Virus record (IMG/VR): IMGVR_UViG_2529292836_000023 | Source of the DNA: a virus | Lineage: Duplodnaviria; Heunggongvirae; Uroviricota; Caudoviricetes | Length of the DNA: 34,006 nt | Reading direction: 5' to 3' (one strand) | Part shown: positions 1-30,332 of the stretch, piece by piece | Position numbering within the stretch: position 1 is the first letter of the stretch | How the letters are laid out: each line of letters begins with the position of its first letter | The notes under the pieces: generated by a model | What the model saw: the letters and a program-made list of their open reading frames with translations, nothing else | Database searches by the model: none | Told to the model about the DNA's origin: nothing | Program-made: the position numbers and the translations under genes

Positions 1-1362
1 ATGTTTAAACCGGAACTCCTTTCCCCGGCGGGAACGCTGAAAAATATGCGTTACGCTTTCGCTTATGGCGCAGATGCTGTTTATGCGGGCCAGCCGCGTT
101 ACTCCCTGCGTGTGCGCAACAACGAATTCAACCACGAAAATCTTCAGCTCGGCATCAATGAAGCCCACGCGCTGGGGAAAAAGTTTTATGTCGTGGTCAA
201 CATTGCACCGCACAACGCCAAGCTGAAAACCTTTATCCGTGACCTGAAACCGGTGGTGGAAATGGGGCCGGATGCGCTGATTATGTCCGATCCAGGGCTG
301 ATTATGCTGGTGCGTGAGCACTTCCCTGAAATGCCGATCCACCTCTCGGTGCAGGCTAACGCCGTAAACTGGGCGACGGTGAAATTCTGGCAGCAAATGG
401 GCCTGACCCGCGTGATCCTCTCTCGCGAGCTGTCGCTGGAAGAGATTGAAGAGATCCGCAATCAGGTGCCGGATATGGAGATCGAGATCTTCGTTCACGG
501 CGCACTGTGCATGGCCTACTCCGGTCGCTGCCTGCTCTCTGGCTATATCAACAAGCGCGATCCGAACCAGGGTACCTGCACCAACGCCTGCCGCTGGGAG
601 TACAACGTCCAGGAAGGGAAAGAAGATGACGTTGGCAACATCGTACACAAGTACGAGCCGATTCCGGTGCAAAATGTTGAGCCGACGCTGGGTATCGGCG
701 CGCCAACCGACAAAGTGTTTATGATCGAAGAAGCCCAGCGTCCGGGCGAGTATATGACCGCGTTTGAAGATGAGCACGGCACTTACATCATGAACTCGAA
801 AGATCTGCGCGCCATCGCCCATGTAGAACGCCTGACCAAAATGGGCGTGCATTCGCTGAAAATCGAAGGCCGTACTAAATCTTTCTACTATTGCGCACGC
901 ACCGCACAGGTTTACCGTAAAGCTATCGATGACGCCGCTGCGGGCAAACCGTTCGATACCAGCCTGCTGGAAACTCTGGAAGGTCTGGCGCATCGTGGCT
1001 ATACCGAAGGTTTCCTGCGTCGTCATACTCACGACGATTATCAGAACTACGAATACGGTTATTCAGTTTCTGACCGCCAGCAGTTTGTTGGTGAGTTTAC
1101 CGGTGAGCGCAAGGGGGACCTCGCGGCAGTAGCGGTGAAAAATAAATTCTCCGTTGGCGACAGCCTTGAGCTGATGACGCCGCAAGGCAACATTAACTTT
1201 ACCCTTGAGCACATGGAAAACGCCAAAGGTGAAGCGATGCCGGTCGCACCAGGCGATGGTTATACTGTGTGGCTCCCGGTCCCGCAGGATCTTGAGCTCA
1301 ATTACGCTCTGCTGATGCGTAATTTCTCCGGGGAAACCACGCGTAACCCACACGGTAAGTGA
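1..1362 (+). CDS. yegQ: U32-family peptidase YegQ (TrhP), host gene
   Basis: 453-aa ORF starting at window position 1; sequence recalled as enterobacterial YegQ; followed by cyaR as in E. coli. Confidence 0.9.
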   Translation: MFKPELLSPAGTLKNMRYAFAYGADAVYAGQPRYSLRVRNNEFNHENLQLGINEAHALGKKFYVVVNIAPHNAKLKTFIRDLKPVVEMGPDALIMSDPGLIMLVREHFPEMPIHLSVQANAVNWATVKFWQQMGLTRVILSRELSLEEIEEIRNQVPDMEIEIFVHGALCMAYSGRCLLSGYINKRDPNQGTCTNACRWEYNVQEGKEDDVGNIVHKYEPIPVQNVEPTLGIGAPTDKVFMIEEAQRPGEYMTAFEDEHGTYIMNSKDLRAIAHVERLTKMGVHSLKIEGRTKSFYYCARTAQVYRKAIDDAAAGKPFDTSLLETLEGLAHRGYTEGFLRRHTHDDYQNYEYGYSVSDRQQFVGEFTGERKGDLAAVAVKNKFSVGDSLELMTPQGNINFTLEHMENAKGEAMPVAPGDGYTVWLPVPQDLELNYALLMRNFSGETTRNPHGK

Positions 1363-1446: not shown

Positions 1447-1533
1447 GCTGAAAAACATAACCCATAAAATGCTAGCTGTACCAGGAACCACCTCCTTAGC
1501 CTGTGTAATCTCCCTTACACGGGCTTATTTTTT
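1447..1533 (+). ncRNA. cyaR: CyaR (RyeE) Hfq-dependent sRNA
   Basis: 87-nt stretch GCTGAAAAACATAACCCATAAAATGCTAGCTGTACCAGGAACCACCTCCTTAGCCTGTGTAATCTCCCTTACACGGGCTTATTTTTT matches the recalled E. coli CyaR sequence, including terminator hairpin and U-tract; lies downstream of yegQ as in E. coli. Confidence 0.85.
1507..1533. repeat. attL core, 27 bp AATCTCCCTTACACGGGCTTATTTTTT, overlapping the CyaR terminator
   Basis: Exact direct repeat of 33503-33529; reverse complement equals the recalled P2 att core AAAAAATAAGCCCGTGTAAGGGAGATT. Confidence 0.8.
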
Positions 1534-1597
1534 ACGCGTAATACAATGAAATAAAAGGATTTATTTCTGGTCACGTCCACACATTGACCACATCGAC

Positions 1598-1628
1598 AAA
1601 AAAGCCCCTCAACTGAGGGGCTATTTTT
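1598..1628. terminator. Bidirectional intrinsic terminator downstream of ogr
   Basis: 7-bp GC stem GCCCCTC/GAGGGGC with 4-nt loop, flanked by A6 on one side and TATTTTT on the other. Confidence 0.55.
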
Positions 1629-1632
1629 GTGA

Positions 1633-1851
1633 TCACATCCACATAATTTGCTGCCCTGACGGCAACGGGTGCGGCCTTACGGCGTGGACTTCTCCCGGCT
1701 TCACGATGTATCGCTGTACCGACTCATAAGTGATGAACGTGGCGCTGCAATTCACGTTCTGGCACTGGTGATAACGCTCTTTTGTCGTGTCAGTGATATA
1801 GCGGCTTGTACGCGCATGTGCGGCATGTTGGCATAAAGGACAATGAAACAT
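1633..1851 (-). CDS. ogr: Ogr late-gene transcription activator (zinc finger)
   Basis: 72 aa from ATG at 1851 (GAGG 8 nt upstream): MFHCPLCQHAAHARTSRYITDTTKERYHQCQNVNCSATF..., matching P2 Ogr and its C-x2-C...C-x4-C finger. Confidence 0.9.
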   Translation of the reverse strand: MFHCPLCQHAAHARTSRYITDTTKERYHQCQNVNCSATFITYESVQRYIVKPGEVHAVRPHPLPSGQQIMWM

Positions 1852-1932
1852 CGCGAGCACCTCTTCCGGTTTTGTTGATGGTGCCATTTTAGTTAATTTA
1901 TCCTTATAAAACAAACAGATAAAATAAAAACA

Positions 1933-3096
1933 TCACTCATTATCTTCTGTTTCGTACTCCACATCAGAAAGCCTGACCTCAAGCTCCAAGGACGTCGTGA
2001 AGCCGCTATTATTCAGAAAATGTGTCACCTTAGTGATTGTCCAGTCCTGCTCGTCTATGACGCGCTTAAAGCCTGACACTTTAACCGGTGTTTCCGTGTA
2101 AATATCTGCCCGACCGGTAGCCAGGCTGATGGAGAACTCCGCAACGCCCCGTTGCAGTTTATCCCACTTCGCCTGAGCGGCGCGCATGGCCTGCGCTTTC
2201 GTGGCATATACCGTGGTCAGGGCAAAAACGTTATCAGCCTCACCGGCCATGTATTCACCTTCGCGCGCTTCCGGTACTTTAGGAGCTTTCTTCTGCGTGA
2301 CTGGTTTCGCTTTCGGGTGCTCCAGTGCGCGCAGGTGTTTCTCTTTCTTTTTGCGTTTCAGTTTTACCTTCTGCTTTTGCGGCTTCGGGTCTTTGGTGTG
2401 TAACCACTTTGCCGTTACGCCGGTGTAAGCTCCACGGTCAGCAATCGCAAAATGATGACGGTCGCCGTCGCTGCGGGTGATGGTAATCTGCGGGATTTTT
2501 TTACCACTGGCCGTCCCCCCCTGCCCCGCTTTGAGAAACAACAGTTTTCCCATTTTTACCGAGACCTCCCCGCCGTTGCGTTCTGCAAGACGGGTCAGGA
2601 ATTTCGCATCAGACTCCTGCGACTGGTCGATGTGCGGGATTTTAATTCCGGCCAGTGACGGAGCGACACTGGCTTCCAGTCTGTTACGGGAGGCTATCGC
2701 CTCAACAATCGCACCGAGCGTGGTGTCATGCCAGGAGCCTTCACGGCGGGAATTGAGCGTCCCGCGGAAATCTGCACTCCGGGCGCGGATGGTAACCACA
2801 TCCGGCGCGCCCCGGTGTTCAACCTCATCAACGGTAAATTTCCCTTTGCATACCAGGGCAAAACCTTTCCAGCCGATATACACCGTCAGGACAGCGCCAC
2901 GAATCGGTAGCCCGACCTGCCCGTCGGCGTCGTTCAGTTCAATATCAAGCTGGTCAGCCTCAAAGCCCCGGTTATCCGTCAGGGTCATGCTCATCAGACG
3001 GTCGCTGATATTGCCGGTAATATCCCTGCTGTCGAGCATCAGCATGTAATCCGGCGTCAGCGTACTGCCTGCATCAAATGTCAGCGCATCCAGCAT
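1933..3096 (-). CDS. D: Tail protein gpD
   Basis: 387 aa, same length and position as P2 D (between U and ogr). Confidence 0.9.
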   Translation of the reverse strand: MLDALTFDAGSTLTPDYMLMLDSRDITGNISDRLMSMTLTDNRGFEADQLDIELNDADGQVGLPIRGAVLTVYIGWKGFALVCKGKFTVDEVEHRGAPDVVTIRARSADFRGTLNSRREGSWHDTTLGAIVEAIASRNRLEASVAPSLAGIKIPHIDQSQESDAKFLTRLAERNGGEVSVKMGKLLFLKAGQGGTASGKKIPQITITRSDGDRHHFAIADRGAYTGVTAKWLHTKDPKPQKQKVKLKRKKKEKHLRALEHPKAKPVTQKKAPKVPEAREGEYMAGEADNVFALTTVYATKAQAMRAAQAKWDKLQRGVAEFSISLATGRADIYTETPVKVSGFKRVIDEQDWTITKVTHFLNNSGFTTSLELEVRLSDVEYETEDNE

Positions 3097-3575
3097 TATC
3101 CCGCCTCCGTCATACCCGTGAATTTAGTCGCTATACTGCCAGCCTTACCGATGAGCGATTCCGCCTGTTTACCGATATCGCCATAAAGCGCGGCCAGTGA
3201 TTCATCAACGCGGGTGAGCGACAGCGTAAAATCAATTTTTCGGGGTGTGCCGTCTGCAAAGAAAATACTCCCTGTTTCACTCACCTTACTGATGACATAC
3301 ATGCCGTAAATCATGCCGGTGCCATCCAGCAACGGCCACGCCCGACCTTCCTCTGCCATCAGCCTGAGCGTGGTCATCGTCAGCTTGCCGCCGGTCAGTT
3401 CGGGATAAAGCACACCGGCCAGCGTGATGTTTTCCTCGCCAACACCGAGAAACTGAAAGGCATCCCGTTTACCGATACGGGAATTTGACGGCCAGCGATA
3501 ATCTGATTCACGCTGCATGGTCTGGTGTGGCAGCGTCTGGCGCATAAAAACAAACATACCTAACGCGAGCATCAT
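3096..3575 (-). CDS. U: Tail protein gpU
   Basis: 159 aa, same length and position as P2 U; stop/start overlap with D. Confidence 0.9.
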   Translation of the reverse strand: MMLALGMFVFMRQTLPHQTMQRESDYRWPSNSRIGKRDAFQFLGVGEENITLAGVLYPELTGGKLTMTTLRLMAEEGRAWPLLDGTGMIYGMYVISKVSETGSIFFADGTPRKIDFTLSLTRVDESLAALYGDIGKQAESLIGKAGSIATKFTGMTEAG

Positions 3576-3589
3576 TTTTCGTCACCTCC

Positions 3590-6037
3590 TTAACCGTCAT
3601 GCATCATGCTGGCACGGGCGCGCGCACGTTTATCCCGCTCGTATTTTTCGAGCGCATCCTGTAACTGGCGGTCAAGCTGTGTCCCCGGCGCAGTACCCCC
3701 CGTCAGGCTGATGTGATATTCGTTTTTACTCTGGTCCACATAAGAGCGGCCAGCCGATGCCGTGACCGGCTGATAAGCCTGATAGCCTGCATAAGAGCTG
3801 GTCGCCGGAATATAACCACCGGTGCCATACGTGGCGGCATGAGTTCTGGCGGCGGTCTGGTCAAGTGTGTCTGACTCTTTGTTGATAACACCGAGTTTTT
3901 CCAGTACCCAGTCAATACCACTGCGCAGTTTGTTGAACGCATTAAGCGGCAGCATCAACGCGTCAGCCAGTGCCTGCCCGAACATGACGCCCGTGTCACG
4001 GCAACGGTTCAGGGTGTCCTGGGTGGCTTTGACCGGGGCAATCAGGTTTTTAAACCACTGCCACGCGGCCTGTAACTTTTCACCCAGCCAGTCAAACAGC
4101 GGCTTCAGTGGCGTGAACAGTTCCCCCACCGGCGCAAATGCAGCTTTCAGCCCTTCAACCACACCGCCAAAGAATGCGCTGACAGGCTCCCAGTATTTAC
4201 GGATAAGCAACGCCCCGGCGACAATGGCGGCCACCACGGCCACAACCGGCCAGCTAATCGCCCCGATGGCGGTCATAACAGCACTGCCAACCGTCGTGAA
4301 GACTGCCCCCATTGCGCCTGCTGCCGCGATGATGGCATTGATGCCAGTGATAACCGGCCAGGCTACAAGACCAATGGCACCGATGATGCCAATAAGCGCC
4401 AGCGCGCCACCGACAATGAGGCCGATGGTTGACGCCAGTGATTTGTTTTTCTGGATCCAGCCGTCGAGTTTTAACACATACTTTGTGGCCGTCTGCGTGA
4501 GCTTACGCAGTGCGCCTTCCTGCTGGTCAAACAGGTCTGTCCCCACCGCCTCATAAGCGGACTGAAACTCCTTAAAGTCACCTCCGAGGTTGTCCTGCAT
4601 GATATTTACCAGCTCGGCAGTCTTCCCGTCTGAGGCTTTAAACGCAGCGGTCAGTTTGTCCAGCTTTCCGGTTGAGGCGGCAGTCATCAGCACGGCGGCG
4701 GCTGAGCTGGCCTCCTCCCCGAAAATAGTTTTCATGTATTCAGCCTGCTGGGCAGTACCGAGCCGGTTTTTCTCAAAACTGGCCTGCATTTCTTTCAGAA
4801 TGGTAAATACTGGCCGGGTGTTTCCCTTACTGTCTGAGGTTTTCACGCCAAGCTCTTTGAGTGCATCCCATGCTTTTCCAGTCGGTGCCTGCAGGCGACT
4901 TAACACGGCACGGCTTCCCGTCCCCGCCATTGAGCCTGTGATTTTTGCATCATGCAGCGCCCCGACCATTGCGGCGGTTTCTTCAATGCTGACACCGGCA
5001 TTTTTTGCCACAGGTGCGGCATAGGTCAGCGCATCGCTCATGCCGTCAAAATCGGCGGCGGTTTTGTTCATCGTCATGGAGAGAACATCCCCGATATGAG
5101 CGACCTTATCGTTTGAAAGCTGAAAGGCGGATTTCATCCCCATCAGCAAGGCGGCGTTTTCTTCCATCGTGCGGCGGTTCGCCAGCGCCATATTCAGCGT
5201 GACCGGCGTTGCCGCCTGAATGGCATCAACATCCCCACCGGCTTTCGCAATAATAATCTGCGCACCGGCTGCATCATCCGCCGAGGCTGCGGTATTGTCG
5301 CCGAGCTGGCGCGCCTGCTTGCGTAGTGCAGCCATTTCGGCGGAGTCTTTTGCCACTCCGAGCACGGCCTGCAATTCTGAGTTTTTCTGCGCAAACTCAT
5401 AACCGGGGATCAGCAACTTAACTCCGGCCATCGTTCCCGCCGCCGCAATCCCCACACCGGCAGCGCCCACTGAGGCCATATTTCCGGCCAGTTCCTTTCC
5501 GGCCTGATAACGCTGTTTGACTGCGTTAAGTTTTGCCTGTTGCGCACTGACACGCGCCAGCGCATCACGCTGCCGGTTAAGCTGTGCGGTGGTTTCACTG
5601 ATACGGTTTTTCAGTCCCTGCTCATCATGTGCAAGATTGCGGGTATTAATTCCCACAGCGGCCAGTTCCCGCTGCTGGCGTTTAACGGAATCCGTCAGGC
5701 GGTTATATTTCGCCTGTAAGTCCTCCGCCGCACGCTTTGCGGATTCCAGCACTTTCGCCTGAGCACGGGTCGGACGTTCGGTGTTTTTAAACTGTGTGGC
5801 AAGGGCTTCGGCTTCCTGCCGTGCCTTTTCAAGTGCATGACCAGTCACGGCAAGCTGTGCACTGGTCTTGCGGAATCCCTCAATACGGGATGCGTGACCG
5901 TTCAGCTCGCGCAGTGATTTTTGTGTTTCCCGGATATCCCCCGACAGCGACTTACTCGCTGTACGGATGGATTTAAACGGGCGGGATGCCTGGTCAACAG
6001 CCCTGAGCAATACCTGTAATTTTACATTGTTACTCAT
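3590..6037 (-). CDS. T: Tail tape measure protein gpT
   Basis: 815 aa, same as P2 T; Ala/Gly-rich hydrophobic central segment typical of tape measure proteins. Confidence 0.9.
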   Translation of the reverse strand: MSNNVKLQVLLRAVDQASRPFKSIRTASKSLSGDIRETQKSLRELNGHASRIEGFRKTSAQLAVTGHALEKARQEAEALATQFKNTERPTRAQAKVLESAKRAAEDLQAKYNRLTDSVKRQQRELAAVGINTRNLAHDEQGLKNRISETTAQLNRQRDALARVSAQQAKLNAVKQRYQAGKELAGNMASVGAAGVGIAAAGTMAGVKLLIPGYEFAQKNSELQAVLGVAKDSAEMAALRKQARQLGDNTAASADDAAGAQIIIAKAGGDVDAIQAATPVTLNMALANRRTMEENAALLMGMKSAFQLSNDKVAHIGDVLSMTMNKTAADFDGMSDALTYAAPVAKNAGVSIEETAAMVGALHDAKITGSMAGTGSRAVLSRLQAPTGKAWDALKELGVKTSDSKGNTRPVFTILKEMQASFEKNRLGTAQQAEYMKTIFGEEASSAAAVLMTAASTGKLDKLTAAFKASDGKTAELVNIMQDNLGGDFKEFQSAYEAVGTDLFDQQEGALRKLTQTATKYVLKLDGWIQKNKSLASTIGLIVGGALALIGIIGAIGLVAWPVITGINAIIAAAGAMGAVFTTVGSAVMTAIGAISWPVVAVVAAIVAGALLIRKYWEPVSAFFGGVVEGLKAAFAPVGELFTPLKPLFDWLGEKLQAAWQWFKNLIAPVKATQDTLNRCRDTGVMFGQALADALMLPLNAFNKLRSGIDWVLEKLGVINKESDTLDQTAARTHAATYGTGGYIPATSSYAGYQAYQPVTASAGRSYVDQSKNEYHISLTGGTAPGTQLDRQLQDALEKYERDKRARARASMMHDG

Positions 6038-6457
6038 TCGTGTTTCCGCTTCGCCGGAGCGCCTTTTCGCGCCATGTGATGAGTTCGGTCAGGCTCATGG
6101 GATACAGTTCTGATGGCGGCCAGTGAAATATCACTGCCACATCCGCCATCAGGTCATCGACCGACAGATTTTTCGGAAACGTCACTGTACCGAGTTCGGC
6201 GACAAAAAACCGACCACCTTACCGGCCAGCGCCACAAGGTCAGGCAGTTCCAGTGCGGCGACTTCCTGCTCGGTCAGCATCGGTGCAGTCATGCGCGGCA
6301 GCACCTTAATCAGTGCATCGACTTCGGAGTTCGCGACCGCAGCCAGACTGACACCGCGCAGCGTCCCGGCATTGGGTTTCATCAGCGTGACCTGTTCGAT
6401 GACCTGCTCACCACGCTTGACCGGATTGTCCAGGGTAATCACATTTTCTTTGTTCAT
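6030..6457 (-). CDS. E+E': Tail assembly chaperone E+E' made by programmed -1 frameshift at TTTTTTG (about 6203-6209)
   Basis: Hand translation of the -1 frame from the slippery heptamer gives ...FVAELGTVTFPKNLSVDDLMADVAVIFHWPPSELYPMSLTELITWREKALRRSGNTNE ending at TAA 6030-6032, total ~142 aa as in P2 E+E'; overlaps the start of T. Confidence 0.7.
6182..6457 (-). CDS. E: Tail assembly chaperone gpE
   Basis: 91 aa, same length and position as P2 E. Confidence 0.9.
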   Translation of the reverse strand: MNKENVITLDNPVKRGEQVIEQVTLMKPNAGTLRGVSLAAVANSEVDALIKVLPRMTAPMLTEQEVAALELPDLVALAGKVVGFLSPNSVQ

Positions 6458-6513
6458 GGTTTTCTCACTTCTGAATCAGGGTTAACCGGTCAGCCTGGCT
6501 GACCGGATGAAAA

Positions 6514-7032
6514 TCACAGGCCGATATTGCGGCGGTGTTGCTCCAGCCGGTCGACGCCGTTCACCTTCTCAATCATGTTGATGGTGTCGATTTCGACCAG
6601 CTCCTTACCGTCCATCGTCAGCCGGAAATAGGTGCAGACCACGGAGATTTTCGACTCGGTGTCTTCTCCCTGTTTCCCCTCGCCGGTGTCGATTTCTTTC
6701 TGACGTCCACGCATGACCACCTCGACGGCCACCGTTTCGCCGGTATCGTCGCGCTGGTAAGAGCCAGCAAAACGAATCGGTACGGCATCCACGCCGGTTG
6801 CGGCGTAAAGCTCCCAGATAACCGAATCCGGGAAGCCCCCGAGCGACCACTCCATTGACAGCGCATCGTCATCAAGGCCGAGGTCTACCGGTGCGCTGCC
6901 GTTCATCCCCGCACCGCGATAGTTTTCGAGCTTACGAGTCAGTTTTGGCAGCGTGACGGACTTTGCAACGCCCTGATAGCTGTAGCCGTTCAGAAAGACG
7001 TTCATTAACTTGAGTTTGCGCGGCATTGCCAT
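6514..7032 (-). CDS. FII: Tail tube protein gpFII
   Basis: 172 aa, same length and position as P2 FII. Confidence 0.9.
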   Translation of the reverse strand: MAMPRKLKLMNVFLNGYSYQGVAKSVTLPKLTRKLENYRGAGMNGSAPVDLGLDDDALSMEWSLGGFPDSVIWELYAATGVDAVPIRFAGSYQRDDTGETVAVEVVMRGRQKEIDTGEGKQGEDTESKISVVCTYFRLTMDGKELVEIDTINMIEKVNGVDRLEQHRRNIGL

Positions 7033-7044
7033 CGGTCAGGCTCC

Positions 7045-8235
7045 TTAATTGCTGTTAACCGAAGTGACCAGATTTGCCAGGTATTTATCGGTAATACGCT
7101 GGCGCAGGGTCAGGTTTTCGAGAGGAGGCACCGGAGTATAGTCGTAGTCGATATACAGTTTTCCGGCCTTGAGGGTTTCCGCATCGTTGGATTCTTCGCT
7201 GAACCAGCAGGTCGCATCCACGATATAGCCGTTTGTTTTCAGTTCACGGAATTTGGCATTAATGCCGTCAACGATGTCGCGAATCAGCGTTGCGGTGATG
7301 GGCTTGTCCACCGCCCACATGTGCGCCTCAGCCATCGTGTCGGCCAGCACCTGCGCGGTACGGGTGTAGTTTTCAAAGAGGAACAGCGGGTCATCAGAGC
7401 AGGTACGGTTACCCCAGAAGCGGAAACCGTCGCGGCGAATCAGCGTAGTGACGCCTGACTCGTTAAGCAGGTCAGCATCGGTGCCGGACTCCTGCAAATC
7501 CCAGAATACAGATGCGCTGATGCCGGTAACACCGTTTACCCCGACGTTGGACAGCGTTTTATGCCAGCCCTGCTCCTGGTCGATTTTAGCGCGCAGACCC
7601 AGCGCACGGGCGGTGGCATACGCGGTGGCGGTGGTGCTGCTGACCGTATCCCATGCGAGGAAATCCGGCCAGATGACCATCAGCTCACGCTGGCTGAAAT
7701 TCTGACGGTAGGCTTTCACCTCGGAAATGGTTTTACAGCCCCATGCGCTGATATACCCGAAAGCGCGCAGCTTCTGACAGACTGATGCCAGTGCAACAGC
7801 CACCTCTTTGGTGTCCAGTCCCGGCACGCCGAGAATACGCGGTTTAACACCGGTTACCGACTCCGCCGCCAGCAGGGCTTTCAGTCCGGTGTACTGACCG
7901 TTTTCGTCGGTGGTGCCGATGATATTGGAAACGGTCTGCGCGAGTTTCGTTTCTTCGTCGTCGCCGGTGCCGTCTTCCACACGCACGACAACGGTGACCG
8001 GTTTTGACTGGTCAGCGATGGCCTGCAGCGACGCCGCCAGCGTGCCTTTTTTACCGGCCTTTGCAATTGCGCTCTGCACATTGGTAATCAGCACAGGTTT
8101 ATTGAGGGGGAAGGTTTCCGCATCCGCATCGCTGGCCGTGCAGACCATGCCGACAATGGCAGTGGATACGGTGGAAATGACGCGGGTGCCGTCGTTAATC
8201 TCCAGCACCTGCACGCCGTGATGATAGTCACTCAT
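7045..8235 (-). CDS. FI: Contractile tail sheath protein gpFI
   Basis: 396 aa, same length and position as P2 FI. Confidence 0.9.
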   Translation of the reverse strand: MSDYHHGVQVLEINDGTRVISTVSTAIVGMVCTASDADAETFPLNKPVLITNVQSAIAKAGKKGTLAASLQAIADQSKPVTVVVRVEDGTGDDEETKLAQTVSNIIGTTDENGQYTGLKALLAAESVTGVKPRILGVPGLDTKEVAVALASVCQKLRAFGYISAWGCKTISEVKAYRQNFSQRELMVIWPDFLAWDTVSSTTATAYATARALGLRAKIDQEQGWHKTLSNVGVNGVTGISASVFWDLQESGTDADLLNESGVTTLIRRDGFRFWGNRTCSDDPLFLFENYTRTAQVLADTMAEAHMWAVDKPITATLIRDIVDGINAKFRELKTNGYIVDATCWFSEESNDAETLKAGKLYIDYDYTPVPPLENLTLRQRITDKYLANLVTSVNSN

Positions 8236-8327
8236 CCGTTTAACTCCGTGGTTAATGGGTGCAACTATTTTCTGTTGTGCAGAGCATGAGACGCTATTTG
8301 ACCTGGCTGGTCAGTGGATGAAACAAC

Positions 8328-8358
8328 AGATAAAGAAAAGGCGGGCAATTCGCCCGCC
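8328..8358 (-). terminator. Intrinsic terminator downstream of the Z/fun-locus cargo gene
   Basis: GC-rich 7-bp stem GGCGGGC/GCCCGCC followed on the minus strand by a U-rich tract (CUUUUCUUUA). Confidence 0.5.
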
Positions 8359-8533
8359 TGTCCTGATTTGTACTCACTCATTTTCCAACTGACTATTTAC
8401 ATAGTCCAAACGCTATCAAATCTGACTGTCTGCTTTGAGCGAGGTGCTGACATCCGCATGAATGTATGGAGCTGCCGCACACTCTAAAAATGATAGAACG
8501 TCTATATATTAATTATCCCTAAGTCCAGTTTTA

Positions 8534-9061
8534 TTAATCAATTTTATTACTTTTACCTGCAACCTTTTTATTATAATGATAATAAGAAATAGCACTAGCA
8601 AAATAGGATTTTGTCATCGATACGAAAAAACCCAACAAATCTGCCATGTTATCAATATCAATATTTGGTTTAGTTTTACTGGCTTTAGTAATCTTCATAT
8701 AGAAGTCCACAAACTTACTTTTTTCTTTATCCGTAATCTGATAATTCAATTGATGACTGATTTTATTTCTTATGCTGTTAAAGTCTTTTATTCTTAAATA
8801 TATTTCATCATAAGGGGGTTTTGCAGGCTCATGTTGTATTAAAGCTATTTTTTGTGAAAATGTGAGTTTTGCATCACCCCAAGCTAACGAAGGATATCTT
8901 AATCCAAGATAATCAGTAATATAATTTTCAAGGCTCAAGTGCGCAGTAAGAAAGGCACCTATGAAGGCAACGTCAACCCCATCAACACGTTCCCATATGC
9001 TTTCATTTTCATCAGTCATACCTGTATACACAGCGGTTGATGCAAGATCTTTCCAGTCCAT
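8534..9061 (-). CDS. Hypothetical cargo protein at the P2 Z/fun position; possible HEPN-like protein (Rx4H motif RNKISH)
   Basis: 175-aa ORF with AAGGA Shine-Dalgarno 6 nt upstream of ATG 9061, in a markedly AT-rich block between conserved FI and G; not recognised as any P2 core gene. Confidence 0.7.
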   Translation of the reverse strand: MDWKDLASTAVYTGMTDENESIWERVDGVDVAFIGAFLTAHLSLENYITDYLGLRYPSLAWGDAKLTFSQKIALIQHEPAKPPYDEIYLRIKDFNSIRNKISHQLNYQITDKEKSKFVDFYMKITKASKTKPNIDIDNMADLLGFFVSMTKSYFASAISYYHYNKKVAGKSNKID

Positions 9062-9450
9062 GTTTTATCCTTTTAAAGGTGAATTTAACGAGTTTAACTT
9101 TATCTCAACTCAATACTTATCTCAAAATTTATGAGTAGAAATAACATCCACAAAAAACTATTAAAGCCCTTTTACCTCTTATTATTGATGAAAATGTACA
9201 TTTTTATAAAGAATGTCGAAGAACCTCCTCAGTGGAACTATCAACTACACATTGCAAGACTAGAGTATGTGCAAACCTTTTGACAAGGTTCTGAAATATT
9301 CATGGTGGCCTTATTATATCAATTTATCTTCACTTTATACATTAACATAGCATGATGTTGATAATGTCCGCTCCTAGCACAGAGCGGACTGTCAGATTAG
9401 GCCTTACTCTGTACTATAGCTATGTTAACTAACACAAGAGATCATATCAC

Positions 9451-9978
9451 TTATTGCGGCATTTCCGGCCATTCAGGATTTGCAGGATCCACACGGCTGA
9501 CCAGAACACTGTAGCGTTCCCATGCTTCCAGTCGGCTACGCTCCTCATCTGTTGCCATGTTCAGCCTGACAGCGCGCTCCAGTGGCTGAATAACGCTTTC
9601 CGCTTCGGAAAGTAACGCGGCCTTTTGTGATTCTGCCTGTTGTTGCTGTTCGTCTGCCGTATAAATCCGCTTAATCACGGCACCATCCTTAAACATCCAT
9701 TTCCCTGAGTCATCAGCACGTCGGTTGGCGGTAATATCAGGAACCTCGACAACGCTAAAACCTTCAGGGTTAAGCGTTGAAGCATCTCTGGTGATGCCGA
9801 CAATTATATTATTCTCGTCGTAAACAATCTTTATCGTGTCTGCCTGAAAATTACTTACTTCCTCATACCAGTTTTTTCCCTCTTCGGACCATAACCAGAT
9901 AACATCAAAATTTTTTGTCAGTTGATATTGGGCAACAGTTTTTGGATTACCCGCAGTAATATTTTTTAAATGCTGCAT
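9451..9978 (-). CDS. G: Tail fibre assembly chaperone gpG
   Basis: 175 aa, same length and position as P2 G, immediately downstream of H. Confidence 0.85.
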
Positions 9979-9981
9979 AAA

Positions 9982-11322
9982 TTACACCTGTGCGACGTTA
10001 TACCATGTGCCATTGATGTATTTTTGTATTGGTCTGAATACTGCGGGGTCATCACCATCGACTTCACCGATAATACCAAGCCCGGTAATTACGTGCCCTG
10101 CTTTCTCATACATCACCCCTTTCTTCATGGTCTGGACAACTCGAGTCCCAAGCCGGATATCGCGTACATAACGGGAATCAAAATTACTATAGTTAGATGG
10201 TGATACCTGCCCGTTAACAGCAAAAGTGATGCTGTTATCTGTATTTCTCTGACTGTAAAAATGCCAGCCTGCATCATCACCTAATTCAGCCACCACAGGA
10301 CGACTTGAGTTTCCCCACAAATTGAATGCGGCTTCCTTCGTGGATGTATTGCTGCTGCTGACCGTGAACTTTTTCCCGCTACCGGCACGTACTTTGGTAC
10401 TTGAGACAATATCACCTGTAACACTCAGGCCATGCCCCATTGACACTCCGCCATTGGCGTTATTGATAGTCAGCGGTCTTAAGCCGTTCCATGTCCCAAA
10501 TTTATCGCCAGAGGCCGTCAGCATTAAATATGTGCTGCCGCCATCATTCCTGATAAAGAAACCATAATTGCCATAAGCAATGCGCAGACCATTAGCACTG
10601 AGTGATGTAATCTCACCTCTTGAACGGAGACCATAAGCGGAGCTGAGTGATAATTCTTCCTGAGCATCAGTATTACCAGTCGCCCAACGAACTACCCCGC
10701 CCTGTACTGTTTCATGCCAGATAGTGTCTCCTTCTCCACCACGAAACTTTCTGAGATATTTTTTGCCGCCTCTTGTGCCTGAACATAAGGCCGTAGACAT
10801 ATAGGCATTCTGGCTTCCACCGTCCTGATTAATCGTTCCGGTCATTGCGTCGCCCTGACGATTCCAGTCACGACGCCAGCCGGGGGAGTAGCCGTCCCCA
10901 TGATTAATGTAAGTGAATTGTGCGCTGGTTGTACCGCCACCGCTTGATGTTGTCGGCGTGGTCACTCGGATAGTGATTGCAGATTTAGTTCCCATGACCT
11001 CGACGACACAACCAGCCAGGTGGATATCACCACATCCGGTATCCGTAATGATTTTGTTATTTGCATATGACCAAGAGCCTTTGCACATCCAGTACGGATG
11101 ATTAAATGCACCACGGGAATCCAGCCATTCAATAAACTGAGCGGTTGTCCAGTTTCCGGCTTCAGTGCTCAAAGCACCGCTATAAGCACGACAGGCACCG
11201 ATATTTTTCGTGAAGGTATCCTTTCCCGGAATATCCGCACCATTCTGATCTTTCTGAAGACGTTTTTCAGCATTGTCATAGGCAGACTTCACCGCTTTGG
11301 TTGCGCCGCGTTTCAGAATCAC
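9982..11322 (-). CDS. H: Tail fibre protein gpH, C-terminal portion (gene interrupted upstream)
   Basis: C-terminus ...GHVITGLGIIGEVDGDDPAVFRPIQKYINGTWYNVAQV and upstream SSSNTSTKEAAFNLWG...AELGDDAGWHFYSQRNTDNS match the P2 H C-terminal region; ORF begins inside the repeat array. Confidence 0.8.
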   Translation of the reverse strand: MILKRGATKAVKSAYDNAEKRLQKDQNGADIPGKDTFTKNIGACRAYSGALSTEAGNWTTAQFIEWLDSRGAFNHPYWMCKGSWSYANNKIITDTGCGDIHLAGCVVEVMGTKSAITIRVTTPTTSSGGGTTSAQFTYINHGDGYSPGWRRDWNRQGDAMTGTINQDGGSQNAYMSTALCSGTRGGKKYLRKFRGGEGDTIWHETVQGGVVRWATGNTDAQEELSLSSAYGLRSRGEITSLSANGLRIAYGNYGFFIRNDGGSTYLMLTASGDKFGTWNGLRPLTINNANGGVSMGHGLSVTGDIVSSTKVRAGSGKKFTVSSSNTSTKEAAFNLWGNSSRPVVAELGDDAGWHFYSQRNTDNSITFAVNGQVSPSNYSNFDSRYVRDIRLGTRVVQTMKKGVMYEKAGHVITGLGIIGEVDGDDPAVFRPIQKYINGTWYNVAQV

Positions 11323-11700
11323 TGTTGGTGCGCTACTGAGCTGGACAAGACCTTTCGCGCGTGTGGCATCCTGTGCAGTGTATTTCCCGTTAGCAAGGTA
11401 TACGCGCTTACCGCCTTTGGCGTTGCGCAGCTTTCAGAATCGCTGTTGGTGCGCTACTGAGCTGGACAAGACCTTTTCGCGCTGTGGTGGCGTCCTGTGC
11501 AGTGTATTTCCCGTTAGCAAGGTCATAGCGCCTTTACCGCTTTCGGGTTGCGGCAGTTCAGACGTGCTGTTGGTGGCGCTACTGAGCTGGACAAGCCTTT
11601 TCGCGCTGTGGTGGCTCCTGGCGTTATTTCCCGTTAGCAAGTCATAGCGCCTTTACCGCTTGGCGTTGCGCAGGTTTCAGACTGTTGGTGCCTCTACTGA
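11297..11700. repeat. Degenerate tandem repeat array (about 3.3 copies of ~120 bp) inside tail fibre gene H
   Basis: Units starting GTTTCAGAATC.CTGTTGGTGCGCTACTGAGCTGGACAAGACCTTTCGCGC... recur with many small indels and substitutions; they encode the repeated P2 H segment (…KGLVQLSSATNSTSE…) on the minus strand. Confidence 0.8.
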
Positions 11701-12226
11701 AACCTTTTGCGGTCAGCGAGGCGTCCGGGTGACGTCGTGACTGTTCGTGCTCTGCAATTTTGTCATCAACGTAATCCTGCGTCGCCATCACCGTTGTGGT
11801 GTCAATGGTCAGCGCCACTGAGGACACACTGCTGACGATGATGACCATGCGGCAGGTCTGCGAACGCCCTGAGCCTTCGGCAAGAGCTGGCTTATAACTT
11901 TCGGCCATGTTCGCCACGGCAATTAACGTTCCAGCATCATCGTACAGGCCAAGCTCACGCATCCAGAAACCGCCCACCTCCGGCGGAATAACCAGCTCTG
12001 CGATAATATAATTACTGTTTCGTTTGTCCTGGCTGATTTTGTTCAGCGCATGCCGCCAGACTTCGTGGATAAGCCCGGTCTGTCCGGCATCCGGGACAGG
12101 CAATTTACCACCGCCATCCCCGACGGCCATCGTGGTAATGTTGACCTTCCGCCCTCCCGGTGCGGTTGCCGCTGCCAGCTTTGCTGCACCGGCAGTGGTG
12201 ATAACGGTTTTGAATTTTGTGCTCAT
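11642..12226 (-). CDS. H: Tail fibre protein gpH, N-terminal portion (frame lost in repeat array)
   Basis: N-terminus MSTKFKTVITTAGAAKLAAATAPGGRKV...GLIHEVWRHALNKISQDKRNSNYIIAELVIPPEVGGFWMRELGLYDD matches P2 H; ORF ends ...DASLTAKGFSRGTNSLKPAQRQAVKAL where P2 continues in frame. Confidence 0.8.
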   Translation of the reverse strand: MSTKFKTVITTAGAAKLAAATAPGGRKVNITTMAVGDGGGKLPVPDAGQTGLIHEVWRHALNKISQDKRNSNYIIAELVIPPEVGGFWMRELGLYDDAGTLIAVANMAESYKPALAEGSGRSQTCRMVIIVSSVSSVALTIDTTTVMATQDYVDDKIAEHEQSRRHPDASLTAKGFSRGTNSLKPAQRQAVKAL

Positions 12227-12236
12227 TATTCCTCAC

Positions 12237-12767
12237 TTATCCGGGGTAAACCGTAATTACATCGCCGTCGTAAGCCACACCACCGGCGAACAGATAGCCG
12301 GGAATGTCCCGGGTAATGTTCAGGCCAATAAGATGACGACTTGCAGGTTTGGCATCAGCAATAAGCCGTTCCATTTCCTGATACATTGCCTCTGTGATGC
12401 CACTTTCCAGTACACCAATATCAAGCCGGAAGGTGCCGGGCGGGTCACTGTTTTCCCACCACTCCGTCACGTTGATGAGATAGCCGAGCGGCTCCACCAC
12501 ACGCCGGATTGCGCCTATAGTGCCCTTATGGCAGTGAATGAAATACGCATCGCGGATAACGGCGCGTTTTGTTGCTTCCGGCCACTTTTCATCCCACCTG
12601 TCGACCGAAAACGCCCACGCCAGCCACGGCAGCAGATTTGCCGGACAGGCATCCGGGTTCCACAGCTCACGAATACTGACCGGCGTTTTTTCAATTTCCG
12701 CACAGGCTTTTGCGGCGGCGACTTCAAGTGGTGATGAGCCGGTCGGCAGCAGGCGCGAATCACTCAT
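12237..12767 (-). CDS. I: Baseplate/tail protein gpI
   Basis: 176 aa, same length and position as P2 I. Confidence 0.9.
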   Translation of the reverse strand: MSDSRLLPTGSSPLEVAAAKACAEIEKTPVSIRELWNPDACPANLLPWLAWAFSVDRWDEKWPEATKRAVIRDAYFIHCHKGTIGAIRRVVEPLGYLINVTEWWENSDPPGTFRLDIGVLESGITEAMYQEMERLIADAKPASRHLIGLNITRDIPGYLFAGGVAYDGDVITVYPG

Positions 12768-13668
12768 CCGGGCCTCCGGTCACGACGCGGTATTCGGTAC
12801 AGAAAGACGCCTGCGTGCTGTTAAGCACGATATCGGCCAGCGGTGCAGCCAGTTCGACACGCTGCACGCCTTCCACATGCAAAGCGGCATAAATGGCAGA
12901 CAGACGGATGTCGCGCCCCAGCCGGTGCTGTGCCGTGATATACGCTTCCAGTTTTTTCACGGCGGCAGCGCGAATGGGTTCGCTTTCGGGGCCAGGGTAA
13001 AGGTAAAGCGTGGCGTTTATCTGGTATTCAACAATGGCGGCAGACTGCACGGTCACGCGGTCGGCCACCGGTCTGACGTCCTCGCCATTCAGGGCGTTAC
13101 GCACCACCGCCAGCAGGTCTTCGGATGCGACACCGTTATTCTCACGTGACAGCACAGAGATGGTGACGCAGGCCGGAGACGGACTGGTGACAGAGATATC
13201 CGCGACACGCCCGTCAGCACTGCGACCATGATACTGATAGGCACCCACCGACCCGGCGACGCTTAAACCTTCAAACGCCTGCTGAATACGCAGACGATAA
13301 TCGGTATCAGATTCCATCACTGCCGGTGTCGGCGGGATGGTCGAATCATCTGCCGGGGTGATAGTCAGACGCGTGGTGTTGTAATTGGCACCAATCACAT
13401 CAAGGTCATTACCCGCGGCACAGGCCAGCATCACCGCCCGTGCGGCCTCATTCACACGCTGACGCCAGATAAGCTCACGATAAGCATTTTCCTCCAGCAG
13501 TTTGACGAGAGGCTCGGATTCCAGCGTCAGGGTACGGGCGACCGCCTCCTGCTGGTCTTCCGGGTAAAGGGAAATCAGTGTCGCCTTGCGTTCGGCAAGA
13601 ATGGTTTCAAAGTCCAGCTCCTCGACCACATCCGGTGCAGGTAGCTGGTTCAGGTCGATAATCGGCAT
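12760..13668 (-). CDS. J: Baseplate assembly protein gpJ
   Basis: 302 aa, same length and position as P2 J. Confidence 0.9.
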   Translation of the reverse strand: MPIIDLNQLPAPDVVEELDFETILAERKATLISLYPEDQQEAVARTLTLESEPLVKLLEENAYRELIWRQRVNEAARAVMLACAAGNDLDVIGANYNTTRLTITPADDSTIPPTPAVMESDTDYRLRIQQAFEGLSVAGSVGAYQYHGRSADGRVADISVTSPSPACVTISVLSRENNGVASEDLLAVVRNALNGEDVRPVADRVTVQSAAIVEYQINATLYLYPGPESEPIRAAAVKKLEAYITAQHRLGRDIRLSAIYAALHVEGVQRVELAAPLADIVLNSTQASFCTEYRVVTGGPDE

Positions 13669-13672
13669 GGTT

Positions 13673-14020
13673 TCAACTCACAGGGATGGTTAACGAAAGT
13701 GGCTGGCCGGTGTCGTTGTGCTGGCCGGTTAACGTAACTGTCATTCGCCCGTCAAAACTGCGCGCCGTAGTGACGGATGACAGGGTGACGCGGGGTTCCC
13801 ATTTCAGCACCGCCATGTAACAGGCGACCTTAATCTGCAACTCAAGCGCCGGGGTCTGCGGCTGGTCAATCATTGACGCCAGCAACGAGCCGTAATCACG
13901 ACGCATCACCCGTGAGCCGACCGGTGTGCGCAGGATATCGCCGATACTCTGGCTGATATGCTCAAGGTCAGTGACAGTCAGGCCATCACGGCGATTCATT
14001 CCGAGATAACGCGCTGTCAT
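13673..14020 (-). CDS. W: Baseplate protein gpW
   Basis: 115 aa, same length and position as P2 W. Confidence 0.9.
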   Translation of the reverse strand: MTARYLGMNRRDGLTVTDLEHISQSIGDILRTPVGSRVMRRDYGSLLASMIDQPQTPALELQIKVACYMAVLKWEPRVTLSSVTTARSFDGRMTVTLTGQHNDTGQPLSLTIPVS

Positions 14021-14652
14021 AGAGGACTCCCGGTTGTGCCGCCGCTGTCGCCGGGGTGTTTATGGGTATGCAGTACCTTACCGTTTGATGAGAGTTCACC
14101 GCCGGTATGTTCAATGTTGCCGCGCATCGTCCCGCCCTTCTGCACTTCCAGCGTACCGGTAATCAGCCTGTTGGTGCAGACCACCTCTGGTGTGTCCAGG
14201 GTGACGCGGGTTGATGCTTTCACCATGACCACCGGCACCGTGGCAGTAACAGAATCAGAAGCCGTCACGCTGGCCGTTTTAATTCCGCTTACCGTGAGTG
14301 CACTGGTTTCGGGTTCATACTCAATCACCGCCCCGTCAGGGAAACGGATATGCATGGCATCCGCCGACGCAGACGGCGGAGGGTTATCGCCGGAATAAAT
14401 CCCCGGCAGAACGAACGCCGTGTCGAGTTCACCGCCCACGGCCAGAATCAGCACCTGTTCCCCCACGGAAGGTGCCCACCATGTGCGCGAACGACCGGCG
14501 CGATGGGTCAGCCACTGAAGCCAGTCGGTGCACATGCCGCCGGTCTGCACACGGCAGCGACCGGCGTTAAGGTCGGTTTCGACGACAAGGCCGGTGCGGA
14601 TCATGTTGCGCAGTGCGCGCGCGATTTCCTGAATATTTGCGAGAGTGTTCAT
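14017..14652 (-). CDS. V: Baseplate spike protein gpV
   Basis: 211 aa, same length and position as P2 V. Confidence 0.9.
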   Translation of the reverse strand: MNTLANIQEIARALRNMIRTGLVVETDLNAGRCRVQTGGMCTDWLQWLTHRAGRSRTWWAPSVGEQVLILAVGGELDTAFVLPGIYSGDNPPPSASADAMHIRFPDGAVIEYEPETSALTVSGIKTASVTASDSVTATVPVVMVKASTRVTLDTPEVVCTNRLITGTLEVQKGGTMRGNIEHTGGELSSNGKVLHTHKHPGDSGGTTGSPL

Positions 14653-14718
14653 AACGGGAAGGATGCCGCCGGGTCATACCGGCGGCAATGTGACGATGAG
14701 GTGTCAGGAATGGCACAA

Positions 14719-15171
14719 CTAACGGTCGAGGTGAGCCAGAATAATCTCTTCAATCATCTGCACATCCTCACCGGTAAAGCCGAGCAGAGGACGCGCCGGA
14801 TAATCAATTTTCTTACCGTCTTTCCGGTTTTCTTCCGACAGACCGAACTGATGCACGCTGGCGATTTTCGGTGACTTCCCGCCGTAAAACTCCATTGATG
14901 CCTGTTCCGGGCTGGCGCGGATATGCAAAAAACGACTGGTGATAAGTTTCGCAAACATTTTTCGCTTAACGCGACCAGTCTTTTTTCTGGCGCTCTGCTG
15001 CTGGCGTGGTGCGTAGGGTGTGCCGTCCGGGGCTTTCTGTGCCATCACCCGGCGCTGCTGACTCTGACGCAGACGTTTCGCCAGCTCGGCGCTCAGTCGC
15101 CGACGCCCTGACGGTGACAGCGACTCAATCAGTCCGGCCAGCCGGTCTTCAAAACGCTTAAACTCATTCAT
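14719..15171 (-). CDS. S: Tail completion protein gpS
   Basis: 150 aa, same length and position as P2 S. Confidence 0.9.
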   Translation of the reverse strand: MNEFKRFEDRLAGLIESLSPSGRRRLSAELAKRLRQSQQRRVMAQKAPDGTPYAPRQQQSARKKTGRVKRKMFAKLITSRFLHIRASPEQASMEFYGGKSPKIASVHQFGLSEENRKDGKKIDYPARPLLGFTGEDVQMIEEIILAHLDR

Positions 15172-15631
15172 TCCACTTACTCACCAGTTCACCATTGATA
15201 TAAAGCTCCATCGGGCGGGTGACCGGCTCCGGCGGCGGGGGTTCCGGGATATTCTTCACATGCAGCGCGCCGTCCACCTCACTGACCAGCGTGCGCTCGG
15301 TGAGCATCAGGCTGATGCTGATATCAAAGCTGCTGTCATTGTTGATGTCCGCATAAAACGTGAAGCCCTTTTTCTGGCCTGCGTCGGTGGTCATGATGTC
15401 GGGCTGATTTTCCCGCAGCCACGCCAGCACCGGCACGATGAGCAGGTCAAAATCACCGGTAAAGTCGGTCACAATCACATTGAGCGTGTAACGCTTTTCG
15501 AATGACAACGACGCAGCCAGTGTGGAGGCAATACTCCCGTTATCCACGAATATCCGCAGCATATCGGGGTTAGTTTTCAGCACCGTGACGGCATCAGTCA
15601 GCGCCCTGCGCAGGCTGTCGGGTTTGAGCAT
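15164..15631 (-). CDS. R: Tail completion protein gpR
   Basis: 155 aa, same length and position as P2 R. Confidence 0.9.
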   Translation of the reverse strand: MLKPDSLRRALTDAVTVLKTNPDMLRIFVDNGSIASTLAASLSFEKRYTLNVIVTDFTGDFDLLIVPVLAWLRENQPDIMTTDAGQKKGFTFYADINNDSSFDISISLMLTERTLVSEVDGALHVKNIPEPPPPEPVTRPMELYINGELVSKWNE

Positions 15632-15884
15632 CGTTTTCGTCCTGACAGTGTTTAATCATTTTTACCTGGCTGGCACAGCGTGCCAGCGCGTTCTCAAGCT
15701 GCCGGATATCAGCACTTAAATCGCCGTTCGTCTGCGGGTCACTTCCCGGCATCGGGCAAAGGCTCACTTTCGGGCAGGCGTTGTGGACAATCACTGGCGT
15801 CGGTGCAGGCCGGACGCTGGTGCAACCGGCGCACAGCATCAGGCAGGCCAGCGCCGTACCAGCGGCGAAAATCTTCGTTTTCAT
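15594..15884 (-). CDS. lysC: LysC, Rz1-like outer-membrane spanin lipoprotein
   Basis: 96 aa; signal peptide with lipobox (LCAGC), Pro-rich mature part; out-of-frame overlap with lysB and R as in P2. Confidence 0.8.
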   Translation of the reverse strand: MKTKIFAAGTALACLMLCAGCTSVRPAPTPVIVHNACPKVSLCPMPGSDPQTNGDLSADIRQLENALARCASQVKMIKHCQDENDAQTRQPAQGAD

Positions 15885-16164
15885 TCAGTAACCTCGTGAT
15901 GGTTTTCTCGCGCTGTGCTTCACGCTTCGCCGCGTTCTCCAGTTCCTGACGCAGTGCCACCTGCGCCAGCTCGTTTTTGTCTGCTCTGGTGAGGGCAACA
16001 TGAAGCTGATTTTTCAGCATGGTGATGGTCGTCTGCTGCCCGCTGGCGACGTTGTTCGCCCTGTCCAGCGAGGTGCGCAGGCTGGCGTTTTCATGCTTCG
16101 CCAGAAACAGACCGGCCACCGCCAGTGATAACAACACAACCAGCACAATCATCAGCTTTGACAT
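15739..16164 (-). CDS. lysB: LysB, Rz-like inner-membrane spanin
   Basis: 141 aa; N-terminal transmembrane helix then coiled-coil-like region; P2 lysB length and position. Confidence 0.85.
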   Translation of the reverse strand: MSKLMIVLVVLLSLAVAGLFLAKHENASLRTSLDRANNVASGQQTTITMLKNQLHVALTRADKNELAQVALRQELENAAKREAQREKTITRLLNENEDFRRWYGAGLPDAVRRLHQRPACTDASDCPQRLPESEPLPDAGK

Positions 16165-16577
16165 GGTTCCCGCCCCTCAAAACGCTGACGACAGGCCGTG
16201 CGTATCAACCGGAAGAACACCGACGCCACGAGGTAAATCAGCGCGGTAAAAATCCACCCGGCAGCAACCAGCGAGATAAACGTCGCCACCATCACCACCA
16301 GAGCCGCCGCCCGTCTGCGCCACGGCACCGGCTGCAAAAACAGCGACGCGACAATCTTCACGGCCAGCGATTCCGGCGGCAGCTCCCGCCCGTAGCGTTC
16401 CAGTACATACTCTGTGGCATACACGCCGACACCACCGGCAACCACACAGATAACCGTCGCCAGAATCGCCCAGGCAGCGACAAAACTGACGGCCACGCTC
16501 TGCGGGTAAATCAGGGACAGTGCCAGCATCAGCGCCAGCGACACGTTCAGCATCAGTGAAAGGGATAATTTCTTCAT
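16152..16577 (-). CDS. lysA: LysA lysis-timing membrane protein
   Basis: 141 aa, multiple hydrophobic segments; P2 lysA length and position. Confidence 0.85.
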   Translation of the reverse strand: MKKLSLSLMLNVSLALMLALSLIYPQSVAVSFVAAWAILATVICVVAGGVGVYATEYVLERYGRELPPESLAVKIVASLFLQPVPWRRRAAALVVMVATFISLVAAGWIFTALIYLVASVFFRLIRTACRQRFEGREPCQS

Positions 16578-16591
16578 GGTATTTACTCCGT

Positions 16592-17089
16592 TTAAGCCGG
16601 TACGCCGCCAGCGGTACGCCAGACGGTGACCAGTTTTTCCAGTGAATGCTCACGCTGACCGTAACCGGCACCCGGCAGGGACGCCCAGATATTGCGACAG
16701 CGTGAAATGGCGCGCTCAATGCGTCCCGCCCGGATGTCATCCAGTGCACCGCGTTCGCGGATCAACTGAATGGCAAGTCTGTCCTGTGACAACGGACTGA
16801 AATCCGGCAGGGCAAGCTGTTTGCGGTAATGCGGCCAGAACAGGTAAAGCTGCTGATAACGACCGGAGGCCGTGGATTTTTCACCGCGACGGTTAAACAC
16901 CTTCGCCGGTCGGCCATGTGCGAACGGGTGGTCACTGTAGTCGGTGAAGATTTCCGGCTTCCCGTCCAGTCCGGTGACTATCACGTCATAGCCCCGGTTT
17001 TTCGTCAGCGGGCGATTCGCCGTCCCTTCGGACACGGCCAGCATGTCGAGAAAGGCAGCGATATTCTGATGCGTGTTAATTTCCGGCAT
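16592..17089 (-). CDS. K: Endolysin gpK
   Basis: 165 aa, same length and position as P2 K, downstream of holin Y. Confidence 0.9.
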   Translation of the reverse strand: MPEINTHQNIAAFLDMLAVSEGTANRPLTKNRGYDVIVTGLDGKPEIFTDYSDHPFAHGRPAKVFNRRGEKSTASGRYQQLYLFWPHYRKQLALPDFSPLSQDRLAIQLIRERGALDDIRAGRIERAISRCRNIWASLPGAGYGQREHSLEKLVTVWRTAGGVPA

Positions 17090-17370: not shown

Positions 17371-17373
17371 GCG

Positions 17374-18929: not shown

Positions 18930-18932
18930 CGG

Positions 18933-30330: not shown

Positions 30331-30332
30331 TA

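Follow-up and report, generated by a model that had tools for sequence, protein, structure and literature searches.

A P2-type prophage at the 3′ end of the cyaR small RNA gene, and the host flank beside its attachment core

The 27-bp attachment core of phage P2 and the chromosomal site locI were reportedly defined by the Haggård-Ljungquist laboratory in about 1989-1992, and the remnant found in Escherichia coli K-12 is said to have been described in the same period. The site locI, which P2 prefers in E. coli, is the insertion site at the 3′ end of cyaR, a small RNA gene also called ryeE.

The paper on the E. coli W genome (PMC3032704) names a "cyaR RNA" insertion site, which holds Wphi2 (P2) in strain W, ogr-D' in K-12 and P2*B in strain B, and Bobay et al. 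(PMC3603311), citing Wassarman et al. 2001, refer to ryeE in E. coli as an already known phage target. The 3′ ends of other small stable RNA genes are also used by phages, as by 186 in tRNA-Ile, by Fels-2 and SopEPhi in ssrA, and in Salmonella at ryeB/sdsR (PMC3448106, PMC3603311, PMC3333887). The main finding presented here, a P2-type prophage inserted at the 3′ end of cyaR, is therefore already known, since cyaR/ryeE has been published as a P2 target and is a common one in E. coli, and the integration itself teaches nothing new. What the locus offers is a clean textbook case of a temperate phage that lands in the terminator of a regulatory RNA and carries the sequence to rebuild the gene, as well as an anchor for annotation, since the ends of the prophage are exact, both att cores are given and cyaR is intact.

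Core repeats, junctions and the sRNA gene

The window (i.e., the whole stretch of DNA analysed, 34,006 nucleotides) contains exactly two copies of the 27-mer AATCTCCCTTACACGGGCTTATTTTTT, both on the + strand and, in a scan for repeat families, spaced 31,996 bp apart. No third copy is present in the window even when up to two mismatches are allowed, and 100 dinucleotide-preserving shuffles of the sequence contained none, in line with none being expected by chance. Identity between the two copies ends on the left with T at 1506 versus A at 33502, and on the right with A at 1534 versus T at 33530. The initial annotation had placed the core at 1507-1533 and 33503-33529 (i.e., in the last 27 nt of the CyaR terminator region and again next to int) and had equated it with the P2 att core; the exact repeat and the Rfam match described below bear out the first claim, and the second is confirmed by identity to the attP core of P2, which is annotated at 24356-24382 of AF063097.1. 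The features of the locus are collected in Table 1.

Table 1. Features of the prophage, its attachment sites and the host neighbours (positions in the window)
Feature	Position	Strand	Basis
yegQ/trhP, host gene on the upstream side of cyaR (tRNA hydroxylase of the peptidase U32 family)	1..1362	+	453-aa ORF; Pfam Peptidase_U32 and C-terminal domain; annotated in matching E. coli records
cyaR (ryeE), full length, ending in the attL core	1447..1533	+	Rfam RF00112; fold with terminator
CyaR intrinsic terminator hairpin, 11-bp stem, 6-nt loop, then TATTTTTT	1498..1525	+	Terminator scan; RNA fold; Rfam consensus structure
attL core, 27 bp common to cyaR and phage	1507..1533	+	Exact repeat; same as P2 attP core
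P2-type (Peduovirus) prophage between the cores, 31,969 bp; 31,996 bp when one core is counted	1534..33502	.	DNA about 96% identical to that of P2 and its relatives
Phage P arm, matching P2-annotated IHF site and arm-type Int sites	1534..1599	.	61/66 bases identical to P2
Bidirectional hairpin terminator of ogr and F operon	1603..1622	.	Terminator-like on both strands; homologous site annotated in P2 for ogr transcript and F operon
ogr, late-gene activator, convergent with cyaR	1633..1851	-	All 72 aa as in P2 Ogr; start and stop codons verified
Tail-fibre gene H, frame broken in 126-bp tandem repeats (11296-11699)	9982..12226	-	Translation and alignment to intact H genes
cos (cohesive end site)	24069..24087	-	18/19 bases match P2 cos
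868-aa SIR2-like-domain protein, cargo at tin/old position, candidate anti-phage defence gene	24392..26998	+	Pfam SIR2_2, E = 6.7e-14
Cox	31601..31873	-	84% identical to P2 Cox
Immunity repressor C, P2 type, of different immunity specificity	31995..32294	+	64.6% identical to P2 C over 99 aa; HTH_3 domain
int, tyrosine integrase	32410..33423	+	336/337 aa identical to P2 Int, V36A the sole change; tyrosine-recombinase families
Phage P′ arm, matching P2-annotated Cox-binding region and arm-type Int sites	33385..33502	.	118/118 bases identical to P2
attR core, second copy	33503..33529	+	Exact repeat
Host flank, putative decayed P arm (fossil), 16 nt lost relative to phage arm, one arm-type motif kept	33530..33582	.	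Alignment, shuffles; present in empty sites too
yegR, host gene downstream	33689..34006	-	105-aa ORF; annotated yegR in matching records

An empty site was assembled in silico by fusing positions 1034-1533 of the window to 33530-34006, and searched against 5426 complete E. coli genomes. The fused flanks matched E. coli 214-4 at 100% and in a single piece, at a natural unoccupied yegQ-cyaR-yegR locus. As the joined flanks thus reproduce a natural empty site, the two repeats do sit at the true host-phage junctions. The distances previously given around them are also correct to within a few bases, with the stop codon of ogr 99 bp after the first core copy (about 100 bp had been claimed) and that of yegR, at 33689, 159 bp past the second (about 160 bp), whilst 79 bp separate the end of int from the second copy.

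The cyaR locus lies between yegQ and yegR, as in K-12, and the intergenic region upstream of the gene is identical to that of K-12 in the alignment. The family CyaR_RyeE (RF00112) is matched at 1445-1530 on the + strand over its entire model (positions 1-85 of 85) with 100.7 bits (gathering score 47), and is the sole Rfam RNA family matched across the entire window. The core covers the last 2 nt of the 5′ arm of the terminator stem, the loop, the entire 3′ arm and the U tract. No difference was found over the 87 nt of cyaR between the window, K-12 and 10 prophage-free strains drawn across the identity range. The claim that integration preserves a full-length CyaR with its terminator is upheld by the full model match, the terminator hairpin and these identical 87 nt, and a 3′ end altered relative to prophage-free strains was seen in none of the 10 compared. 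At the attR core neither a second CyaR (Rfam over the window) nor a terminator-like hairpin (terminator scan, RNA fold) was found, and the absence of a second CyaR follows from the lack of both the cyaR promoter and the 5′ stem arm at that end.

At 33517-33542 the right half of the core and the host flank together form a second inverted repeat, GGGCTTAT(N10)ATAAGCCC, which has no T tail. This repeat is split at attL, where the phage arm replaces the host flank.

Content of the prophage, its integration and the readings weighed against it

Megablast searches of phage records align the prophage with P2 and with many genomes of Peduovirus at about 96% identity, leaving out only a few variable segments. 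Every annotated P2 gene was translated and its product searched against the window, and every essential P2 gene was found. Identity to the P2 counterpart is 92.6-100% for the products of Q, P, O, N, M, L, X, Y, K, R, S, V, W, J, I, G, FI, FII, E, T, U, D, B and A. H alone among the essential genes is divergent, with a match restricted to residues 1-226 at 78%. No match to the products of orf30, fun(Z), tin or old was found in the window. The tin/old locus, a known variable hotspot of P2-like phages, is occupied here by the SIR2-domain cargo gene, whose product matches SIR2-type models of PADLOC (pAgo-associated SIR2 and PDC-S65) in its N-terminal region only. A small ORF (26987-27235, -) adjoins this gene, and an 82-aa cargo ORF received no name from NCBIfam or PADLOC. 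The position of fun(Z) (8236-9450) holds different DNA with a 175-aa ORF (8534-9061, -), for which no family was matched in Pfam, NCBIfam or PADLOC.

In the P2 record (AF063097.1) the P arm for Int and the IHF site are annotated on the ogr side of attP, and the Cox sites and the P′ arm for Int on the int side. In the window, the P arm carries the motif TGTGGTCA at 1585-1592 and the P′ arm the motif TGTGGACA at 33396-33403 and at 33407-33414, in all cases on the - strand. The pattern TGTGGWCA has six matches in the 34-kb window, four of which lie within 120 bp of a core and flank both cores. The arm-site consensus published for P2-type phages, tgTGGaCa (PMC3448106), fits this pattern.

Taken together, the junctions, the identity of the core, arms that are P2-like on either side and an Int nearly identical to that of P2, all of them observed, make it almost certain that a P2-type phage of 31,996 bp was integrated here by tyrosine-integrase recombination between its attP core and an identical attB core at the 3′ end of cyaR. 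Nothing was found that contradicts integration at cyaR. The exchange between attP and attB has produced an attL made of cyaR, core, P arm and ogr, and an attR made of int, P′ arm, core and host DNA. Since phage and host are identical across the core, attL rebuilds a cyaR that is identical over its 87 nt. Going by the established biology of P2, integration would be carried out by Int together with the IHF of the host, and excision by Int, IHF and Cox. The terminator shared by ogr and the F operon, 70 bp past that of CyaR, would be expected to stop transcripts reading through from cyaR before they become antisense to ogr. The functional reading is limited by H, whose frame is broken as sequenced, and by cos, since the exact P2 cos is absent from the window and the one site present differs from it by a single mismatch (1/19).

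Three other readings of the locus have to be weighed against this one. That the repeats might be coincidental or internal, with the real boundaries of the prophage elsewhere, has next to no probability left and can be regarded as refuted, given that the reconstructed empty site already matches natural genomes at 100% in one piece and that phage homology begins and ends precisely at the edges of the core. Integration could, on the other hand, subtly alter CyaR by shortening its U run from seven to six in lysogens, thereby weakening termination or Hfq binding. The base that follows the core does differ, the empty site of this strain background having T7 and attL having T6 followed by the A of the phage, and it has been reported that at least seven U are required for efficient Hfq binding and that read-through at the K-12 CyaR terminator reaches 41%, as measured with a plasmid reporter in an hfq mutant (PMC9765468). 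However, among the 10 prophage-free strains sampled T7 is found in four and T6 followed by A in six, so that the T6 form of the lysogen is itself a natural allele and the T7 to T6 change at attL is inside normal variation. The CyaR of K-12 is, moreover, already in the T6, phage-joined form at its junction, and the published functional work on CyaR in K-12 has consequently used that very allele. The tail also contains U-A-U6, which makes the count of U ambiguous. An alteration of CyaR by integration thus appears highly improbable, and a small quantitative effect of T7 versus T6, if there is one, is unlikely to be of importance. The polymorphism itself can be read at 1526-1534 versus 33522-33531, K-12 and the lysogens having T6 followed by the phage A.

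The remaining alternative concerns the state of the prophage rather than its place, and holds that it was integrated as described but is defective (cryptic), without infectious particles since H decayed. Read from its start at 12226 on the - strand, H is indeed interrupted by a stop after 194 codons. Yersinia phage vB_YpM_46 has an H of 2295 nt that is intact, and relative to it the gene in the window is 50 nt short, through 16 gaps that are each 1-9 nt long and all located in the 126-bp repeats. In the alignment to E. coli NCCP 13717, whose H is also intact, the gap columns again number 50 and every one of them lies within 11304-11697. If these deletions are real, the prophage would be unable to make tail fibres and H would be a pseudogene. 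Against such decay, the sequence outside the repeat block of about 400 bp (11296-11699) has just one mismatch in some 2500 bp to the intact gene of NCCP 13717, and the other essential genes are intact at the identities given above; many small deletions confined to a repeat, in a gene otherwise pristine, resemble an error of consensus or assembly more than they resemble decay, for which reason the frame breaks in H are probably such an artefact. The 12 best matches to the H region among complete genomes have 98.2-98.3% identity and each spans 2951 bp against 2901 nt of the query, and the form of H in the window is shared by none of the complete genomes among the matches listed (98.3% being the best for the H-G region in complete RefSeq genomes). 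A cryptic prophage is on these grounds rather unlikely, and we favour the reading of an integrated P2-type phage whose H is misrepresented in the sequence. The description of the prophage as complete, made in the initial annotation, can therefore be kept as far as gene content is concerned, all the essential P2 genes being present, and has to be qualified for the tail-fibre gene, whose frame is disrupted as sequenced. Phages with a P2-type C repressor are classically not inducible by mitomycin C, so that induction by this agent, as proposed earlier, would be a poor test.

The site across genomes and the flank beside the core

A 481-bp query spanning the attR junction (the 3′ end of int, the core and the yegR flank) was covered over at least 80% in 812 of the 5426 complete E. 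coli genomes, i.e., in about 15% of them, which represents most of the occupied sites. At least 80% of the fused-flank query was found in one place in 4565 genomes, where the site is empty, or contains the 630-bp remnant of the K-12 type or, as in Nissle, 169 bp inserted near yegR. In the remaining genomes the two halves of the query match separately, which we take to mean that a large insertion lies between them. The insertion of the Nissle-type strains (locus about 1000-1170) is AT-rich, lies immediately upstream of the stop-side flank of yegR, about 150 bp from the att core, and is unrelated to the prophage. That such a share of complete E. coli genomes have the site occupied in this way, and that the "reference" CyaR of K-12 is a phage-joined allele, is of modest value to know.

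Outside E. coli, a search of one genome per species (185,579 species) retrieved the exact core in 21 stretches, which belong to Escherichia, Shigella, Kluyvera and two records of Enterobacter hormaechei only. The core is preceded by cyaR in all of them but one, the exception being an attR copy in E. ruysiae. The site is used in Kluyvera too, as the cyaR of Kluyvera intermedia is followed by a P arm that is P2-like but diverged. Some of these records are anomalous. In the two of E. hormaechei, a yegQ-cyaR segment 99.6% identical to that of E. coli gives way to unrelated flanks, suggesting transfer or mislabelling. Two records that represent E. coli/Shigella species (among CP1783xx/CP1825xx) have many small indels in cyaR, which suggests assemblies of low quality, and in a third record of the same group cyaR and the 3′ region of yegQ are Kluyvera-like.

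The host stretch at 33543-33582, after attR, is 75% identical to the P arm at 1562-1601, after attL, with an offset of 15 bp. Local alignment of the P arm to the E. coli flank gives a score of 38. Over 2000 shuffles the score averaged 14.2 and reached 30 at most, and a chance likeness is rejected on this ground. The corresponding flanks of Kluyvera, Enterobacter and E. ruysiae score 10-19 against the P arm, i.e., at background. The flank is found in the empty-site match of strain 214-4 and in all 10 of the empty sites sampled, and is thus not specific to lysogens. One of its variants is intermediate: Escherichia sp. MOD1-EC7003 (555-687, -) has retained the part CAATGAAA.A.AAGGATTTAT of the phage arm that E. 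coli has lost, and then continues as the E. coli flank does; it scores 53 when aligned to the P arm and 122 when aligned to the flank of E. coli. In addition, the empty site of E. coli RIVM_C037884 begins ACGCGTAA, exactly like the phage arm. Judging from these alignments, the host flank after the cyaR core is very probably homologous to the P arm of the phage.

The simplest reading of this likeness would be that an ancient P2-like prophage at the site was almost wholly deleted, and that what remained, namely cyaR, the core and a short piece of the P arm, became the present "attB" of E. coli. The prophage would have been fixed, and then deleted, before E. coli split from the cryptic Escherichia lineage that keeps the 16 nt. 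The inverse event, i.e., capture of the phage arm from the host, is less likely, both because its motif is shared with the P′ arm, which lies inside int, and because the diverged phage of K. intermedia has a homologous P arm whilst Kluyvera hosts are without the flank. A deletion of the same near-total kind as the one proposed for this fossil seems to be under way now in the K-12 remnant. One arm-type motif, TGTGGTCA, survives in the fossil at 33566-33573, 37 bp from the core, and one could speculate that it still binds Int and so aids preferred integration or biases excision, a candidate function that we consider improbable. A literature search for homology in the flank of locI returned nothing relevant, and the fossil arm of the empty site, the sole element of this locus for which no description was found, may be new. 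If correctly read, its presence in empty sites would show that the locus has been used by phages for a very long time.

Comparison with known systems

The closest of the known systems is P2 itself at locI, with which the window shares the 27-bp core, Int (336/337), the P′ arm (118/118), most of the P arm (61/66), the gene order ogr-att-int-C and, apart from H, essential genes that are 92.6-100% identical. The differences lie in immunity, cargo and tail fibre. C and Cox are only 65% and 84% identical to those of P2, which is why the immunity is of another type, and the prophage is, as its sequence reads, a P2 integration module combined with an immunity specificity other than that of P2. In place of the non-essential genes orf30, fun(Z), tin and old the prophage carries different cargo, with the SIR2-domain protein among it, and H has a different C-terminal part with the 126-bp repeats.

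The ogrK-yegZ (ogr-D') remnant of K-12 resembles the window base for base at the junction of cyaR and phage, through the P arm and ogr, and has the same flanking genes. In contrast to the whole prophage of the window, with both its cores, only about 630 bp are left in K-12. As had been stated before, this locus holds nothing but the ogrK and yegZ remnants between cyaR and yegR, which the alignment resolves into ogrK and a truncated D pseudogene. The deletion in K-12 extends between a point within D and a point within the attR core, and ACACGGGCTTATTTTTT is all that is left of this core.

Wphi2, P2*B and the prophages of the 812 genomes have the insertion site and the type of integrase junction in common with the window. 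Even so, the cargo carried at the variable loci of P2-type prophages at cyaR differs from strain to strain; strain H9Ecoli, for example, has the 481-bp attR junction at 100% but a different P2 variant, with other cargo at these loci. Phages that target other RNA genes work alike in that a phage copy of the 3′ end of the RNA gene regenerates that gene on integration, whereas their targets, cores and integrase specificities are others, and what is rebuilt here is the terminator of an Hfq-dependent sRNA and not a tRNA-like structure.
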